64,000 nucleotides of DNA from a bacterium (GCA_030429765.1 JAUIER010000003.1:144402-208401), one strand, 5' to 3'; shown: positions 59,650 to 64,000, counted from the first letter of the stretch. Translations and numbers: made by a program. The notes: generated by a model not told the origin, from the sequence alone.

Positions 59650-60426
59650 ATGACACAGATGCAAAAAGAAGCGCACATGACCGGTCAGGATCTCATGGGG
59701 ATGGTGCAGTTACGGCCGGAAGATATCGGAAAATACGCGATCGTCCCCGGTCCGCGTGAACGGGCCGACGCCATCGTCGCCAAGATTACCGATCCCGTCA
59801 AGAATTTCAGCTTTATGGAATACACGATGCATACCGGGGACTACGAAGGCATTCGGTTGACAACGATCAACGGCGGACGTTTCGCGCCGGATACATCAAT
59901 CACCACGGAAATTCTGTGCAACGCCAAAGTCAACGGATTGATCCGGGTGGGCAGTTGCGGCGCGCTGCGGGAGGATATGAAGGTCGGCGACATCGTGGTA
60001 GTGGATACAGCAATCAAAGGGGATGGCGTTACGAAGTATTATGTTGATGACGAATTTGTGCCCAAGGCCGACGAGGCTCTGAGCAAGGCGCTCACGGAAA
60101 TCGCTCAGAATTCACTGCAGGCCAATGGGCTGATTGAGAACAAGGTTCATGTTGGACCATGCTGGACCACCGACGCGATTCTGCGTGAAACACGTGAGCA
60201 TGTTGGAAAGGCAGTTGATCAAGGCGCAATCGCGGTTGATATGGTGACCTCGGCGCTGTTGACGATTTGTCAGCTGTATAACGTACCGGCAGCGGTGATC
60301 CTGGCGGTGAGTGACAATGTCATCACCGGCGAGATGGGATTTATGAATCCGGATTATTACATGGCGGAAACGGCCATTATTAATATCGCGTTGGATGCCG
60401 TCAAACAGTTGGAAGCGGCGGCCTAA
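59650..60426 (+). CDS. PNP/Udp-family (hexameric DeoD/Udp-type) nucleoside phosphorylase, copy 1
   Basis: AIVPGPRER, RVGSCGAL and VGDIVVVDTAI match DeoD/Udp motifs (AIVPGDPDR, RVGSCGA). Confidence 0.82.
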   Translation: MTQMQKEAHMTGQDLMGMVQLRPEDIGKYAIVPGPRERADAIVAKITDPVKNFSFMEYTMHTGDYEGIRLTTINGGRFAPDTSITTEILCNAKVNGLIRVGSCGALREDMKVGDIVVVDTAIKGDGVTKYYVDDEFVPKADEALSKALTEIAQNSLQANGLIENKVHVGPCWTTDAILRETREHVGKAVDQGAIAVDMVTSALLTICQLYNVPAAVILAVSDNVITGEMGFMNPDYYMAETAIINIALDAVKQLEAAA

Positions 60427-60441
60427 TCGGAGGGATCAATT

Positions 60442-61206
60442 ATGTCGACGATGACCAAGGATATCTACTTATCAGGTAAAGAGCTCACCGAAATGGTTCA
60501 GCTGCGTCCCCAGGATGTGGGGCGCTACGCGATCGTTCCGGGGCCTCGTGAACGTCTGAAGGGAATTCTTTCCGGGGTCGAGAAGCCGATCAAGAACTTC
60601 AGTTTTATGGAGTACGAAATGCATACCGGTGAGGCCAACGGGATTCGGACAACATTTATGAATGGCGGCCGCTATTCGGCGGATACGGCGATCACCACCG
60701 AATTGCTATGCGCCGTGGAGATCTCCTACTTGTTCCGGTTGGGAACGTGCGGAGCATTGCGCGATGATATCAACATCGGAGATGTCGTTGTCGCGGAGAC
60801 CGTCTGGAGCCAAGATGGAGTGACACCGTTTTACACTGATCAGGATAAAGTCAACGCGGAATCCAATCCGGAACTCGTCGATATGGTTGTAGCCACCGTC
60901 GAGAAGGCCGGTCTAAGGGCGCATCGCGGGCGGGTTTGGTCGCATGATGCCCTCCTTCGTCAAACGCGCGATAGAGTTGAACAGGCCATCGCTGAAGGAT
61001 GTATCGCATCCGATATGGTCTCATCAGCTTTCCTGACGATTTGCGGGCAAAGCAAAATGGCGGGTGTGTCGATTTTGGCGGTGGGCGATAACGTGGTTCG
61101 CGGTGAGTTTGGATACATGGATACAAATTTTTATATGACGGAACATATGCTGACGCAGGTGTGTACGGATTGTATTCAGCAGTTGGAGTCCGCCGCCGGG
61201 GCATAG
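60442..61206 (+). CDS. PNP/Udp-family nucleoside phosphorylase, copy 2 (tandem paralog)
   Basis: Collinear with copy 1 (MVQLRPQDVGRYAIVPGPRER...). Confidence 0.82.
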   Translation: MSTMTKDIYLSGKELTEMVQLRPQDVGRYAIVPGPRERLKGILSGVEKPIKNFSFMEYEMHTGEANGIRTTFMNGGRYSADTAITTELLCAVEISYLFRLGTCGALRDDINIGDVVVAETVWSQDGVTPFYTDQDKVNAESNPELVDMVVATVEKAGLRAHRGRVWSHDALLRQTRDRVEQAIAEGCIASDMVSSAFLTICGQSKMAGVSILAVGDNVVRGEFGYMDTNFYMTEHMLTQVCTDCIQQLESAAGA

Positions 61207-61211
61207 CTTGA

Positions 61212-62204: not shown

Positions 62205-62724
62205 GACGCTAGACAACGATAAACCGGATCAGAAAGATGTCCTGAGTGAGTTCAAGGAATCTGTTGTACTGGTTCAGGGAATCCTCGACGCTGAATACTA
62301 TGATAAGATCATCAAGGATGGTCACAAAGAAGTCTTCGTGCTGGAGGGACGACCGTCACTGGAATCGGCTGAGTACTCATGTAAGCAGTTATTGCAGCGG
62401 AAGGTCAAGCCGACGTTAATCGCCGATAATATGGCGGGTTTTTTATTCTACAAAAATCTGGTGAAGGAAGTATGGTTGTCCTACCAGGTGGCGGATGAAG
62501 AGAAGGCGTTGTGCCAGGTCGGAGCCTTAATCTTGGGCGTACTAGGCAAGAAGCATGGTGTGCCGGTTAAATTGTTTCCGAGCTCGGAGAAACTGAATTT
62601 GGTCGGGCGTCAGCGTGAGATCTTTTACTTTAAAGGAATAAAAGTCGCACCCAGCAACATCCAGGGGTATGTGCCGCTGGCCGAGTGGGTGCCAATGAAA
62701 TATATCACCAAGGTGTATCGATGA
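62194..62724 (+). CDS. truncated eIF-2B-like paralog (176 aa)
   Basis: VLEGRPSLE...TLIADNMAGF...GALILGV echoes the C-terminal half of the preceding gene. Confidence 0.55.
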   Translation: MSTKTLDNDKPDQKDVLSEFKESVVLVQGILDAEYYDKIIKDGHKEVFVLEGRPSLESAEYSCKQLLQRKVKPTLIADNMAGFLFYKNLVKEVWLSYQVADEEKALCQVGALILGVLGKKHGVPVKLFPSSEKLNLVGRQREIFYFKGIKVAPSNIQGYVPLAEWVPMKYITKVYR

Positions 62725-63740
62725 ATGAAGATCTGATACGGAAAAAAAAGAAAAATATTATCACCATCGGGCGGCTGCTCTGGGAGAAAGATCTGGCCAG
62801 CGGACTCAACGGCAATATCAGTGCCCGTTTGGATGAGTCGACGATTCTCATCACCGCGACCGGAACGTGTCTGGGGTTGTTGCAGGAAAAAGATATTCTG
62901 ACCATGCGGCTTGATGGTCAGTTGCTCGAGGATGGGAAGGTCTCGACCGAAAAGCTGCTTCATACCGAGATCTACAAAAATTTCGCGGAAACGCAGGCTG
63001 TGGTGCATACGCACACGACTTATACGAACGCTTATTTTCTCAGTCATGAAACACTGAAACCCCGCGTGTTTGAAACACGGGTATATTTGGGTGAAGTGAC
63101 GGGTGTTCCACAGAAGACGCCGGCGGTCACGGATGCCCAGCCGGTGATCGACGCGCTTGAAACCAACAACATTGCGGCGTTAAGAAATCATGGTGTGGTG
63201 GCGATGGGTAAAGAACATTTCGATTGTTTTCTGTTGATCCAGGCGCTGGAAGATGCCGCCAAGATCGATGCGATCAATCACATCTATACATCCGCCGGGA
63301 GCTCGGCCTCTGCATCATCTGCGGCGGATGCTTCGTCGTCGGATGACTCGGCAGCAAACGGTAAACGCTATAAGCTTTTTTCACCGGAGCAGATGGACGC
63401 GATTGTCGAATATGTGAATAAAGACGAAGAGATGCAGCAGTTGGGTAAAGAGACCCAGATGACATTTGATCTGGCCGTGCTATTAGACGAAACAGGTGAA
63501 TCATATTCCTTTGAATTTCAGGAAGGACGGATCGCGAATGTTCGTCAGGATGCCAAAGCCGAATTTGTCGTCTCGGCGCCGGAGAAGGTATGGCGGCAGG
63601 TGTTTAATCAGGAAATTGATCCGTTTGTTGCGACAACACAAAAGAAGATGAGTCTCGACGGTGACTTTGCGAAAATATCGCGCTGGTACGCGCCGTGCTC
63701 GCGGGTCTTTGAAATCTGGGCTAAAGTTCCAATCGAATAG
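62721..63740 (+). CDS. class II aldolase/adducin-domain protein (MtnB/FucA-like) fused to a C-terminal SCP2-like domain
   Basis: GLNGNISARLDE...VVHTHTTYTNAYFL aldolase motifs. Ser/Ala linker. C-terminal FVVSAPEKVWRQVFNQEIDPFVATTQKKMSLDGDFAKISRW resembles SCP2. ATGA overlap with the upstream stop. Confidence 0.78.
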   Translation: MNEDLIRKKKKNIITIGRLLWEKDLASGLNGNISARLDESTILITATGTCLGLLQEKDILTMRLDGQLLEDGKVSTEKLLHTEIYKNFAETQAVVHTHTTYTNAYFLSHETLKPRVFETRVYLGEVTGVPQKTPAVTDAQPVIDALETNNIAALRNHGVVAMGKEHFDCFLLIQALEDAAKIDAINHIYTSAGSSASASSAADASSSDDSAANGKRYKLFSPEQMDAIVEYVNKDEEMQQLGKETQMTFDLAVLLDETGESYSFEFQEGRIANVRQDAKAEFVVSAPEKVWRQVFNQEIDPFVATTQKKMSLDGDFAKISRWYAPCSRVFEIWAKVPIE

Positions 63741-63756
63741 TGAGTAAAAATACAAG

Positions 63757-64000
63757 ATGACGGCCCTATCGACAAAAACTTTTGATGCGGTGAATCCGGC
63801 CACGGGAGAGATGTTTAGCCAGATTCCCGATATGTCAGTCGAGGAAATTCGGCAAGTGATCCAGCGTGCGCGTCACGGGTTTGATACAGGACCATGGAAA
63901 GATTTTAGTTTCGCTGAACGTGGCATCTACCTCAAGAAGATTGCGAAGCTGGTGCGGACGCATGCCAAGGAGTTGGCGGATTTGGAGATCAAGGATGTCG
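63757..64000 (+). CDS. aldehyde dehydrogenase family protein (5' part; continues past the window end)
   Basis: FDAVNPATGEMFSQIPDMSVEEIRQVIQRARHGFDTGPWKDFSFAERGIYLKKIAKLVRTHAKELADLE is an ALDH N-terminal pattern. Confidence 0.8.
   Translation, partial: MTALSTKTFDAVNPATGEMFSQIPDMSVEEIRQVIQRARHGFDTGPWKDFSFAERGIYLKKIAKLVRTHAKELADLEIKDV

Follow-up and report, generated by a model that had tools for sequence, protein, structure and literature searches.

In the 64-kb window (the whole stretch of DNA analyzed here), a gene encoding an AMP-forming ligase of 505 aa (58121-59638; PF00501, 1e-89, plus PF13193) is followed up to the window end by six genes, all on the + strand. These encode two nucleoside phosphorylases (PNP1, 258 aa, 59650-60426, PF01048, 6.5e-36; PNP2, 60442-61206, PF01048, 2.5e-25), a full IF-2B/MtnA-like isomerase of 330 aa (61212-62204; PF01008, 1.3e-51), a half-size IF-2B paralog of 176 aa (62194-62724; PF01008, 4.5e-09, covering only model positions 132-271; referred to as half-isomerase), a class II aldolase fused to an SCP2-like domain (62721-63740; PF00596, 2e-36, and PF02036, 4.7e-06), and the first 81 codons of an aldehyde dehydrogenase (ALDH), which starts with the ATG at 63757 and runs past the window end at 64000. 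A PadR-family regulator gene (57457-57978, + strand; PF03551, E = 1.6e-12) directly precedes the operon's promoter region. The public contig L001 is 100% identical to the window (window position = L001 position + 55538) and carries the full ALDH gene (L001:8219-9646, 475 aa; PF00171, 2.1e-163). All the genes named in a first-pass annotation of this DNA (ligase, PadR, phosphorylases, isomerases including the truncated paralog, the aldolase with its SCP2 fusion, and dehydrogenase) were found in place on this one strand, although the genes from the ligase to the end of the window number six and not five as counted there.

The genes are tightly packed, with intergenic gaps of 15, 5, and 16 nt, an 11-nt overlap between the isomerase and half-isomerase genes, and a 4-nt overlap (ATGA) between the half-isomerase and aldolase genes; an alternative ATG of PNP1 at 59635 overlaps the ligase stop. 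Translation of the aldolase begins at the ATG at 62721, not at the GTG at 62685 (an exact-sequence look-up matched with 62721 only). Identical gene order recurs in at least 80 Omnitrophota species-level genomes and is therefore far beyond chance, and the individual genes are nearly universal (ligase in 63/63 loci, PNP1 in 66/67, isomerase in 69/69, ALDH in 66/66). Single-ORF fusions join the ligase to a PNP in two loci (L038 and L063), and the half-isomerase to the aldolase in another (L036). Distant aldolase-SCP2 homologs (about 30% identity) pair separately with PNP1-, half-isomerase-, ligase-, and ApbA-type genes, for example with a half-isomerase-type gene beside a 30%-identical aldolase-SCP2 in L087, while a full-length isomerase was not found nearby in five such divergent loci. 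The region from 58121 to 64000, together with 1.2 kb past the window end, is predicted to encode a translationally coupled set of six enzymes (hereafter the module), which are probably physically associated.

Across the Omnitrophota, the module makes up the 5′ half of a conserved array of 14 genes. In 80 genomes of the group the array continues, with its order unchanged, with genes for a BchE-like B12 radical-SAM enzyme, an ApbA-like reductase, a ketosynthase with an inactive partner (KS/CLF-like), a dedicated ACP, and a PF04199 hydrolase; SRPBCC/SnoaL-like proteins are also among the downstream accessory genes. The B12-binding radical-SAM gene, whose model matches are all below cut-off, comes after ALDH in 50 of 58 loci, and the remaining 8/58 lack it yet keep the module. 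Reading the genes as a self-contained salvage cluster overlooks this larger array, with its B12 radical-SAM, KS/CLF-like, and ACP genes.

PNP1 is a predicted purine nucleoside phosphorylase of the hexameric type (NP-I, DeoD/Udp-like), though an atypical one; in the PDB it matches Bacillus DeoD/adenosine phosphorylase best. The equivalents of DeoD G20, R24, R87, S90, and the purine-specifying D204 are invariant in its orthologs. Compared with DeoD, all 70 of 70 orthologs have R43 replaced by E, M64 by R, and E179-M180-E181 by D-M-V, leaving the enzyme without the ribose-binding Glu (DeoD E181, here Val) and the inter-subunit Arg43, and hence with an unusual sugar recognition. It scores far below the cut-offs of the models for MtnP (TIGR01694, 16 vs. 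275 bits), HpnG (51.5 vs. 187), and futalosine hydrolase (28.8 vs. 125). PNP2 is a tandem copy (46.5% identical to PNP1) present only in L001, L002, and L006, i.e., in one of the 67 other species. The duplicate listed among the cluster's unusual extras is therefore real, but it is a clade-specific local accident and not a core feature; the two other such extras, namely the SCP2 fusion and half-isomerase, belong to the conserved core.

The catalytic Cys (in THCNVSGEL) and Asp (in GSDR) of the isomerase align to C160 and D240 of Bacillus subtilis MtnA and are invariant in 73 orthologs. The protein passes the TIGR00524 cut-off (188.8 vs. 185.85) and stays below those of NF004326 (233.8 vs. 271), TIGR00512 (MtnA; 212.8 vs. 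279), and TIGR00511, the R15P isomerase (R15Pi) model (128.1 vs. 314). The MtnA models outscore the latter (233.8 and 212.8 vs. 128.1 bits), and the isomerase did not score as a true e2b2 or eIF2B equivalog. We predict it to be a catalytically competent MtnA-like aldose-1-phosphate/ketose-1-phosphate isomerase. The half-isomerase aligns with isomerase residues 184-324 at 24% identity and represents the C-terminal domain only, without both catalytic residues (no Asp at the GSDR position). It diverges quickly (33-75% identity), yet is present in 70/71 loci, and is likely a structural partner.

The aldolase-SCP2 protein consists of a Zn-type class II aldolase domain (about aa 1-192), a Ser/Ala/Asp low-complexity linker (about aa 193-213), and an SCP2-like C-terminal domain (about aa 214-339; PF02036, 27.3 bits vs. 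a cut-off of 21.3). In its AF2 model the pLDDT is 83, with the linker below 50. The residues for Zn binding (three His), catalysis (Glu), and the DHAP phosphate (a Ser/Thr/Asn site) are retained, and H96, H98, H157, E77, N32, and S75 are invariant. The top Foldseek matches are FucA, aq_1979 (also the top PDB sequence match), YgbL, and DrdA; the sequence match to DrdA (6btd) is weak (40 bits), although the fold agrees. Scores for MtnB (NF006672, 71.6 vs. 226; TIGR03328, 64.7 vs. 137; both over the N-terminal 100 residues) and for NF053831, the Ru1P aldolase model (62 vs. 300), are low, and the protein did not score as a FucA or ribulose-1-phosphate aldolase equivalog. The family comprises more than 120 full-length clusters at 61-71% identity, and genomes of 147 species contain its signature motifs. 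All its members carry the SCP2 fusion, the last 40 residues being nearly invariant, and we found no description of a class II aldolase-SCP2 fusion in a literature search.

The ALDH is predicted to be a hydrolytic NAD(P)+ aldehyde dehydrogenase. Its motifs ELGGKSP (Glu) and QGQMCTAG (Cys), whose residues have their roles assigned as in ALDHs generally, are invariant in 73 orthologs; such a hydrolytic step would be irreversible and run from aldehyde to acid. It reaches 492 bits against TIGR01804 (cut-off 669), and its best PDB matches are phenylacetaldehyde and betaine aldehyde dehydrogenases. The ligase, a predicted AMP-forming acyl-CoA (or acyl-ACP) ligase with the motif NGWGMTET invariant in 70 orthologs, is of FadD/MenE/4CL type (NF004837, 468.5 vs. 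476 bits), with FadD5, feruloyl-CoA synthetase, MenE, and 4CL as its nearest solved structures. It has Gly at the position of the Trp that acts as the acetate gate in Acs. Together with the SCP2 domain, this non-acetate-type ligase may indicate an aldehyde and acid other than acetaldehyde and acetate.

We tentatively propose, with confidence a little short of even, that the module splits a 5′-deoxyadenosine-type nucleoside derived from radical-SAM chemistry into base, DHAP, and an acyl thioester, in effect a DHAP shunt with two added steps. The DeoD-like phosphorylase would remove the purine base from a 5′-substituted 5′-deoxy-nucleoside to give a pentose-1-phosphate, which the MtnA-like isomerase, with the catalytically dead half-size paralog as structural partner, would convert to a ketose-1-phosphate. 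The Zn class II aldolase with its tethered SCP2 domain would then cleave the latter to DHAP and an aldehyde X-CH2-CHO, to be oxidized to X-CH2-COOH by the hydrolytic ALDH and activated by the FadD/MenE-type ligase as a thioester with CoA or the operon's own ACP. The substrate would most likely be a 5′-deoxyadenosine-type radical-SAM product, most simply 5′-deoxyadenosine itself and possibly MTA, with X being hydrogen or, as the SCP2 domain and ligase type hint, a hydrophobic group. The module would thereby clear an inhibitor, and DHAP and the acyl thioester would go to the adjacent BchE-like radical-SAM/ketosynthase/ACP pathway; we infer the direction of flux, the identity of the nucleoside, and this coupling to the downstream genes. 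The catalytic residues are intact, and the enzyme order, read from sequence, matches DHAP-shunt, Drd, and fluoroacetate-type chemistry. The phosphorolysis, isomerization, aldol cleavage, and oxidation logic of the first-pass annotation stands, as do its family assignments, but not an identity with MtnP, MtnA, or MtnB (16/275, 213/279, and 65/137 bits); no module protein reached any of the equivalog cut-offs for MtnP, MtnA, MtnB, FucA, R15Pi, DrdA-like, or Ru1P aldolase. The proposed pathway would be an unstudied variant of DHAP-shunt-type chemistry, and our literature search found no description of this operon.

Several other systems share parts of this scheme. The haloarchaeal non-carboxylating pentose bisphosphate pathway employs a nucleoside phosphorylase, R1P kinase, R15P isomerase, RuBP phosphatase, and Ru1P aldolase; here there are no kinase or phosphatase genes, and the isomerase and aldolase score far below the corresponding models (128 vs. 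314 and 62 vs. 300). In the futalosine (MqnE/MqnB/MqnD) and hopanoid (HpnH/HpnG) routes, a PNP/Udp-fold enzyme strips the base from a 5′-C-substituted adenosine; in the former, ribose C1′-C3′ is finally discarded by a retro-aldol cleavage, which makes the adenosyl group a C2 donor. The likeness lies in these steps, whereas the module differs in its low HpnG and futalosine-hydrolase scores and in its proposed combination of phosphorolysis, isomerase, and class II aldolase, and its surroundings contain no genes for MqnA/C/D/E, HpnH, or a squalene-hopene cyclase. SCP2 fusions and carriers include the SCPx thiolase-SCP2, MFE-2, the alkylsulfatase C-terminal domain, and UbiJ/UbiT. The shared arrangement would be a C-terminal SCP2 domain flexibly tethered to an enzyme acting on hydrophobic substrates, but here the last 40 residues show unusually little variation.

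Another close system is the DHAP shunt (MtnP, or MtnN plus MtnK; MtnA; Ald2) of Rhodospirillum rubrum, Rhodopseudomonas palustris, and ExPEC E. coli (PMC10986504, PMC12632272). There too the genes are clustered and a purine 5′-deoxynucleoside is converted via pentose-1-phosphate and ketose-1-phosphate (MtnA-family) to DHAP and an aldehyde (class II aldolase). The module differs in using a DeoD/Udp-like phosphorylase with altered ribose/phosphate contacts instead of MtnP, an isomerase under the MtnA equivalog cut-offs with a dead half-size paralog, and an aldolase bearing an SCP2 domain; in having a dedicated ALDH and acid activation in the operon, where the known shunt relies on reduction or housekeeping enzymes; and in being set in a radical-SAM/KS/ACP array. 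The DrdK/DrdI/DrdA system for 5-deoxyribose disposal in Bacillus thuringiensis, of which Clostridium has variants that start with a phosphorylase, yields DHAP and acetaldehyde (PMC6079011). It likewise salvages 5′-deoxyadenosine (a radical-SAM by-product), and its isomerase is a paralog of MtnA and its class II aldolase FucA-like, but here the aldolase resembles DrdA in fold more than in sequence, there is no kinase, and ALDH, ligase, SCP2 domain, and half-isomerase are additional. Were acetaldehyde the product here, the universal SCP2 domain on its flexible linker, the Gly in place of the gating Trp in a ligase that is not Acs-like, and the phenylacetaldehyde and betaine aldehyde dehydrogenases as nearest solved relatives of the ALDH would be left unexplained. 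The fluoroacetate pathway of Streptomyces cattleya and Nocardia brasiliensis (FlA, the phosphorylase FlB, FDRP isomerase, aldolase, and fluoroacetaldehyde dehydrogenase) shares four consecutive reaction types, from a 5′-X-5′-deoxyadenosine to X-CH2-CHO and X-CH2-COOH (PMC3999930), and is an example of this kind of chemistry serving biosynthesis, in that case of a functionalized C2 acid. Here, in contrast, the phosphorylase is of another subfamily and the genes form one contiguous run with ligase and KS/ACP genes, and no SAM-dependent halogenase (fluorinase/chlorinase) gene was found in the operon or, across 80 loci, in the surrounding 10 kb or so.

A rather unlikely, though substantial, alternative is that the adenosyl group serves as C2 donor, the substrate being a 5′-adenosylated hydrophobic intermediate formed by radical addition to a lipid or aromatic acceptor. 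With the base removed and C1′-C3′ released as DHAP, acceptor-CH2-CHO would become an acid and then a thioester, as starter or intermediate for the KS/CLF-ACP enzymes. Additions of the 5′-deoxyadenosyl radical are known from HpnH (adenosylhopane) and MqnE (aminofutalosine), and the futalosine pathway, in which ribose C4′-C5′ is used as carbon and C1′-C3′ is discarded, offers a precedent. The universal, lipid-binding type of SCP2 on a disordered linker of about 20 residues, the FadD/MenE/4CL/feruloyl-type ligase without a Trp gate, an ALDH closest to aryl- and amino-aldehyde dehydrogenases, the atypical phosphorylase pocket, and the PadR regulator all fit, as do the KS and inactive partner, dedicated ACP, and SRPBCC/SnoaL-like genes downstream, and the ligase-PNP and half-isomerase-aldolase fusions suggest a channeling complex. 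However, the neighboring radical-SAM enzyme is a B12-binding BchE-like one with only sub-threshold matches, a class to which, to our knowledge, HpnH and MqnE do not belong; the eight loci without it keep the module; no acceptor-forming genes were identified; and the SCP2 domain could instead serve docking or oligomerization, its nearly invariant last 40 residues being unusual for a generic lipid tunnel. More doubtful is ordinary purine-nucleoside catabolism, in which adenosine, inosine, or guanosine would pass via ribose-1-phosphate and ribulose-1-phosphate to DHAP and glycolaldehyde, and on to glycolate and glycolyl-CoA or glycolyl-ACP, as a kinase-free analog of the non-carboxylating pentose bisphosphate pathway. 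A DeoD/Udp-like rather than MtnP-like phosphorylase that keeps the purine-specifying Asp, its invariant N-terminal His9, which by-eye alignment suggests may be the 5′-OH-binding His of Udp/DeoD, the invariant and polar, not hydrophobic, Ser-Gly-Glu after the isomerase catalytic Cys, and the class II Ru1P aldolase known in haloarchaea (NF053831 match weak) point that way. Yet the isomerase is MtnA-like and not R15Pi-like, and we know of no established MtnA-family ribose-1-phosphate isomerase; the Ru1P-aldolase score is far under its cut-off; the ribose-OH-binding Glu is absent from the phosphorylase; and glycolaldehyde or glycolate explains neither the SCP2 domain nor the FadD-like ligase.

Two further readings appear highly improbable. 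The genes may be unrelated and ordered by Omnitrophota synteny, or may run biosynthetically from aldehyde and DHAP via ketose-1-phosphate and pentose-1-phosphate to a modified nucleoside, since aldolases, isomerases, and purine phosphorylases all catalyze reversible reactions. Synteny does extend 5′ of the operon to apparently unrelated genes (epimerase, coiled-coil protein, CBS protein, and lipoprotein), so that the adjacency of the module to the radical-SAM/KS/ACP genes downstream may partly be general synteny. However, these neighbors are present in 27-54 of about 80 loci compared with near 100% for module genes, start/stop overlaps and fusions in independent species tie the latter together, the same partner families re-join distant aldolase-SCP2 homologs, and the hydrolytic ALDH would fix the aldehyde-to-acid direction. 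Hardly credible at all is canonical methionine salvage, with the aldolase-fold protein as an MtnB-type methylthioribulose-1-phosphate dehydratase and methionine remade from MTA. It would accommodate the weak N-terminal MtnB matches and the broad fold shared with aq_1979, but those scores are far under the cut-offs, MtnC/W/X/D and transaminase genes were not found in the operon or the 80 loci, and aldehyde dehydrogenase and acid ligase come next, in line with an aldehyde product.

As for regulation, the PadR gene is present in 48 of the 57 other Omnitrophota loci spanning the position, and here is separated from the ligase gene by a 142-nt AT-rich spacer. The best sigma-70-like promoter match in it (TTGACA-16-TAAAAT, 58012-58039, + strand; L001 2474-2501) agrees with the consensus at 11/12 positions but goes no further than this agreement, and promoter-like sites are overall no more numerous in the region than expected from shuffled sequence. 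Directly after its −10 box is an imperfect palindrome, AACTAGTAAAATTTTAATAGTT (58042-58063, no strand; 12-nt arms, 92% complementary), a candidate PadR operator.

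All the genes that the first-pass annotation had read as a nucleoside or 5'-deoxy(methylthio)pentose salvage cluster were recovered on the + strand by ORF listing and profile searches. A PadR regulator gene (57457-57978) is followed by genes encoding an AMP-forming ligase of 505 aa (Lig, 58121-59638), two phosphorylases of the PNP/Udp fold (PNP1, 59650-60426, and PNP2, 60442-61206), an IF-2B/MtnA-like isomerase of 330 aa (Iso, 61212-62204), a 176-aa IF-2B paralog consisting of the C-terminal domain only (half-Iso, 62194-62724), a 339-aa fusion of a class II aldolase and an SCP2 domain (AldSCP, 62721-63740), and an aldehyde dehydrogenase (ALDH, 63757 onward) that is interrupted by the window end. 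Gaps between the operon genes are 5-16 nt where the genes do not overlap; Iso and half-Iso overlap by 11 nt, and half-Iso and AldSCP have ATGA in common. For AldSCP, the start proposed by the ORF finder (GTG 62685) gave no match in an exact-sequence look-up, and ATG 62721 was called instead. Such a look-up also found L001, a public 13.6-kb contig that carries the window 5.4 kb further (100% identity over the 2 kb compared). There, ALDH is complete (475 aa) and is followed, in order, by a lineage-specific 125-aa coiled-coil ORF, a B12-binding radical-SAM protein, a 91-aa DUF2621-like protein, an ApbA/PanE-family reductase, and the start of a FabF-like ketosynthase.

The region's best promoter-like site, TTGACA-16-TAAAAT (58012-58039), lies within the AT-rich spacer between PadR and Lig, in a region where promoter counts are not above shuffled controls. 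Directly 3' of its -10 box is a 22-nt palindrome, AACTAGTAAAATTTTAATAGTT (58042-58063), which is a candidate PadR operator. No convincing intergenic terminator was found inside the array, where counts likewise do not exceed shuffled controls, and a search for a SAM, SAH or cobalamin riboswitch 5' of the operon gave no match to any Rfam family, either in the window at gathering thresholds or in L001 at E ≤ 1.

The nearest AldSCP homologs carry the names Candidatus Omnitrophota or Omnitrophica, with more than 120 sequence clusters at 61-71% identity that all have the full-length fusion. We scanned one genome per GTDB species with two peptide motifs of the SCP2-like domain, which matched 147 genomes, and mapped the loci in the best 80 of these with 17 query proteins (all Omnitrophota MAGs, including some TPA assemblies that bear the label "uncultured Planctomycetales"). 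In the best 80 of the 147 species-level genomes, the genes invariably lie on one strand in the order PadR - Lig - PNP - Iso - half-Iso - AldSCP - ALDH - radical SAM - DUF2621-like - ApbA - KS1 - KS2 - ACP - PF04199 "cyclase" (KS1 and KS2 being a ketosynthase pair), which makes this 14-gene array one of the most strictly conserved gene orders seen in our analysis. Among loci long enough to span the respective position, Lig (63/63), Iso (69/69), ALDH (66/66), DUF2621-like (56/56), ApbA (53/53), and KS1 (46/46) are always present, followed by half-Iso (70/71), PNP (66/67), KS2 (42/44), ACP (41/43), the PF04199 "cyclase" (36/40), radical SAM (50/58, i.e., following ALDH in 86% of loci), and PadR (48/57). 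Several array proteins are 80-87% identical between species. An upstream epimerase, coiled-coil protein, CBS protein, and small lipoprotein are likewise syntenic in 27-54 loci, and part of the array order may therefore reflect general synteny. Besides the overlapping genes, Lig and PNP form a single ORF in two independent species (L038:6161-8497, 778 aa, and L063:4856-7225, 789 aa), and half-Iso and AldSCP do so in another locus (L036:9476-11002, 508 aa). These apparent fusions in MAGs, together with the overlaps, point to a possible complex with channeling of intermediates.

From this anatomy, the best-supported chemistry has five steps, in which a nucleoside would be phosphorolysed to a base and pentose-1-P, the pentose-1-P converted to ketose-1-P, the ketose-1-P cleaved to DHAP and an aldehyde X-CH2-CHO, the aldehyde oxidised to X-CH2-COOH, and the acid converted to a thioester. 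The module resembles the DHAP shunt or Drd pathway (PMC10986504, PMC6079011) with oxidation and activation steps in addition, and its aldehyde oxidation step also occurs in the fluoroacetate pathway (PMC3999930). It would work like a DHAP shunt, but should not be classed with the MtnP/MtnA/Ald2 or DrdK/I/A systems: none of the equivalog cut-offs is reached, and the phosphorylase appears to be of another subfamily. The genes of the first-pass annotation are confirmed, and its comparison with a DHAP shunt is supported in part.

PNP1 is a PF01048 phosphorylase with its phosphate- and purine-binding residues kept, and the invariance of the counterparts of DeoD G20, R24, R87, S90, and D204 suggests a purine phosphorylase. 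It scores below the cut-offs of both the MtnP model TIGR01694 (16.4 bits, cut-off 274.85) and the MTA/SAH nucleosidase model TIGR01704 (49.7, cut-off 73.8). In 70 of 70 orthologs, R43 is replaced by Glu, M64 by Arg, and the E-M-E ribose motif by D-M-V (E181 to V), and a 39%-identical PNP adjoining a distant AldSCP has D-M-I at this motif. Judged from these residues, PNP1 probably represents a distinct, DeoD/Udp-like subfamily of NP-I with atypical sugar recognition. The idea that the 5'-OH-binding His of DeoD/Udp is replaced by Met, which would favor 5'-deoxy substrates, was dropped, as an invariant His9 lying 7-8 residues further upstream in the family alignment is a possible equivalent. PNP2 is a recent tandem duplicate that is not part of the core, being confined to one clade (L001, L002, and L006; 1 of 67 other species). 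At the place of PNP2, between PNP and Iso, four other loci (L003:7962-8558, L011, L028, and L082) have an unrelated ORF of 198-228 aa without a Pfam match.

In Iso, the Cys of THCNVSGEL and the Asp of GSDR align to C160 and D240 of B. subtilis MtnA (numbering verified against the 2yrf alignment), which we take from the MtnA literature to be catalytic; both are invariant in 73 orthologs, and their presence places Iso with the MtnA-family isomerases. The broad subfamily model TIGR00524 is the sole one whose cut-off is reached (188.8, cut-off 185.85). Iso scores below cut-off on the MtnA equivalogs TIGR00512 (212.8 vs. 279) and NF004326 (233.8 vs. 271), and lower than on these on the R15P-isomerase model TIGR00511 (128.1 vs. 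314.1). The loop after its Cys is C-N-V-S-G-E, where MtnA has C-N-A-G-S/A-L/I-A-T, and also differs from C-x-S-K-A, the 5-phosphate-binding loop at this place in PH0208 (PMC5789824).

The half-Iso protein spans the C-terminal domain alone (PF01008 positions 132-271); its alignment with Iso is limited to residues 184-324 of the latter, at 24% identity. Half-Iso has an IF-2B fold without the catalytic residues, as in eIF2B-family pseudoenzymes: the Cys loop has no counterpart, and Ser-Tyr-Gln stands where Iso has Gly-Ser-Asp, so that the Asp is missing. It evolves fast, yet is near universal, and a gene of this type also adjoins a distant AldSCP (~30% identity) in L087, where the context is unrelated. 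Half-Iso is best read as a putative non-catalytic structural subunit.

The aldolase domain of AldSCP is nearest in fold to FucA, aq_1979, YgbL, and DrdA. It conserves the metal ligands His96, His98, and His157, as well as the catalytic Glu77 and the phosphate-site residues Asn32, Ser75, and Thr76, with roles that we assume by homology to E. coli FucA. The protein falls below every NCBIfam subfamily cut-off, with the best scores on FucA_Meth (103 vs. 250) and PRK08660 (103 vs. 203), and lower ones on two MtnB models (64.7 vs. 137 and 71.6 vs. 226) and the Ru1P aldolase model NF053831 (62.1 vs. 300). By sequence alone, aldolase activity is inseparable here from that of a dehydratase, decarboxylase or epimerase; the adjacent ALDH favors an aldolase.

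The C-terminal domain of AldSCP scores 27.3 bits on the SCP2 profile PF02036, above the Pfam gathering score of 21.3, and around half of the 120 closest homologs have a precomputed PF02036 match. In the AF2 model (pLDDT 83), a disordered Ser/Ala/Asp linker (aa 193-213) joins the aldolase domain to an alpha/beta domain of SCP2 topology, in which aa 222-333 form two helices, a five-strand sheet, and C-terminal helices. The domain has a K-x4-G-D-F-A-K-I signature, and the final 40 residues are near invariant over 84 sequences. A sequence comparison of the domain with the PDB gave only T. thermophilus SCP2 at a non-significant E of 0.86, and Foldseek with the whole model gave aldolase-domain matches alone among the top 50; the SCP2 assignment therefore rests on the Pfam profile and the model topology. 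Our literature search found nothing relevant on class II aldolases with SCP2 or on methionine salvage or deoxyadenosine in Omnitrophota, and no description of the 14-gene array or of an aldolase-SCP2 fusion; as far as our search goes, AldSCP would be the first such fusion to be described. The first-pass annotation had listed a duplicated phosphorylase, a truncated isomerase paralog, and an SCP2 fusion as unusual extras. All three are real: PNP2 is a tandem duplicate (46.5% identical to PNP1), half-Iso lacks catalytic residues, and PF02036 confirms the fusion. Only the first is an extra, as half-Iso is found in nearly all loci and the SCP2 fusion is universal in the AldSCP family.

More divergent AldSCP fusions (29-41% identity) occur in other gene contexts in five loci (L085-L089). 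Their neighbors include a ligase, a cytochrome c, and a 2Fe-2S protein (L085), an ApbA-like reductase (L086), a half-IF-2B, an AlaDh_PNT protein, and a CoA-transferase (L087), and a PNP1-type phosphorylase (L089); a full-length isomerase is absent nearby in all five contexts examined. Since distant AldSCPs pair separately with Lig-, ApbA-, PNP1-, and half-Iso-like genes, the aldolase is the hub of a recurring functional network.

ALDH has both residues of the hydrolytic aldehyde dehydrogenases, Glu in ELGGKSP and Cys in QGQMCTAG, and would therefore convert the aldehyde irreversibly to the acid; its nearest relatives are phenylacetaldehyde, betaine-aldehyde, and ALDH1/2 enzymes. Lig is a generic ANL enzyme similar to FadD5, MenE, 4CL, and feruloyl-CoA synthetase. 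Its invariant motif NGWGMTET has a Gly in place of the acetate-gating Trp of acetyl-CoA synthetase.

Downstream of ALDH, the radical-SAM protein matches BchE best (184 bits, cut-off 481), followed by HpnJ (131). Eight loci (L032, L040, L053, L056, L062, L070, L075, and L082) lack its gene at the place after ALDH, with the remaining array intact; ALDH and the DUF2621-like gene are separated by -13 to 274 nt in seven of them and, in L082, by 1096 nt that hold an unassigned ORF of 330 aa. KS1 is FabF-like (458 on the FabF subfamily NF005589, cut-off 387), with a Cys-His-His triad invariant in 57 orthologs. In its homologous partner KS2 (L002:16891-18123 and orthologs), these residues are replaced by Arg, Asp, and Asn, invariant in 49 orthologs, and KS2 is thus predicted to be an inactive, chain-length-factor-like partner, the two forming a KS/CLF-type pair. 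The ACP is divergent (28 bits vs. 71-84) with the DS(T) phosphopantetheine site kept, and small SRPBCC-like and SnoaL-like ORFs are added in many loci. This half of the array resembles a type II PKS or a specialised FAS. "Ladderane-type" clusters have been reported in Omnitrophota by antiSMASH-based surveys (PMC9902471). A ladderane link was considered for this array and is not favored: the radical-SAM protein scores 71 bits on the ladderane-type model TIGR04072 (cut-off 360), and the comparative-genomics study of ladderanes says nothing of genes for a phosphorylase, isomerase or aldolase.

Canonical methionine salvage is rejected by the MtnB scores below cut-off and by the lack of enolase-phosphatase or dioxygenase genes in the operon or its conserved neighbors. 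Similarly, the pentose bisphosphate pathways are rejected, as the R15P isomerase and Ru1P aldolase models are not reached and the CNVSGE loop differs; no RuBisCO, R1P kinase or RuBP phosphatase was found in the 64-kb window or in the loci. A SAM-dependent halogenase (fluorinase or chlorinase), which a pathway of the fluoroacetate or chloro-deoxyadenosine type would need, does not occur among the called genes or conserved neighbors within about 10 kb in the best 80 loci.

X may be H or a larger group. If X is H, the substrate would be 5'-deoxyadenosine, a stoichiometric and inhibitory product of radical-SAM enzymes, and the radical-SAM gene after ALDH, the sole indirect evidence for MTA or 5'-deoxyadenosine as substrates, would fit such a role; the module is also kept where that gene is absent, as a general salvage route would be. 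However, AldSCP carries its SCP2 domain on a tether and Lig is unlike Acs, and both features, like the relatives of ALDH and the PadR regulator, hint at a larger hydrophobic or aromatic X. A broader proposal, of low but non-negligible probability, is that the array is one new pathway using the SAM adenosyl group as a two-carbon building block: a hydrophobic acceptor would be 5'-deoxyadenosylated in a radical-SAM step, the base and C1'-C3' (as DHAP) removed by the phosphorylase, isomerase, and AldSCP, the remaining -CH2-CHO extension oxidised and ligated to the dedicated ACP or CoA, and the product elongated by the KS/CLF. If this were true, the array would yield a lipid or polyketide-type cofactor specific to the phylum. 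The route would then follow the logic of the futalosine pathway by means of phosphorolysis and an aldolase, and would make a starter unit in a new way.

Almost nothing is known of the lipids and cofactors of Omnitrophota, a widespread and mostly uncultured phylum, and the strict conservation of the array suggests a probable part in producing or sustaining something central to these bacteria. A module that is a dedicated 5'-deoxyadenosine recycler tied to a B12 radical-SAM/ketosynthase pathway would show how an inhibitory by-product is handled at high flux with all carbon recovered, and one that trims an adenosylated hydrophobic intermediate would represent a new biosynthetic use of SAM. In both cases the five-step module offers new enzyme variants, namely a phosphorylase of the NP-I type that lacks the canonical Glu for ribose binding, an MtnA-type isomerase with a pseudo-subunit, and the class II aldolase-SCP2 fusion.

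Elsewhere in the window, every ORF of at least 150 aa with a Pfam match is on the + strand (1-64000) and GC skew is positive in 32 of 32 two-kb bins, consistent with one long leading-strand segment. Immediately 5' of PadR is a pyruvate-kinase homolog of 343 aa (56406-57437, +) with the barrel domain and without the C-terminal domain, which passes TIGR01064 (404.6 vs. 306.4) and is present in 14 of 51 other loci. A DeoC/LacD-family class I aldolase of 351 aa (19916-20971, +), with a NUDIX hydrolase directly 5', is unrelated to the operon in position. A glycogen-type trio (35846-40702, +) encodes a GH13 branching-enzyme-like protein with CBM48, a GH57 protein with DUF3536, and a GH77 4-alpha-glucanotransferase. 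A giant ORF of 3731 aa (40908-52103, +) has Pfam matches only to at least two Cro/C1-type HTH domains (aa ~1454-1600) and a weak Kdo/WaaP-kinase-like stretch (aa 3005-3073).
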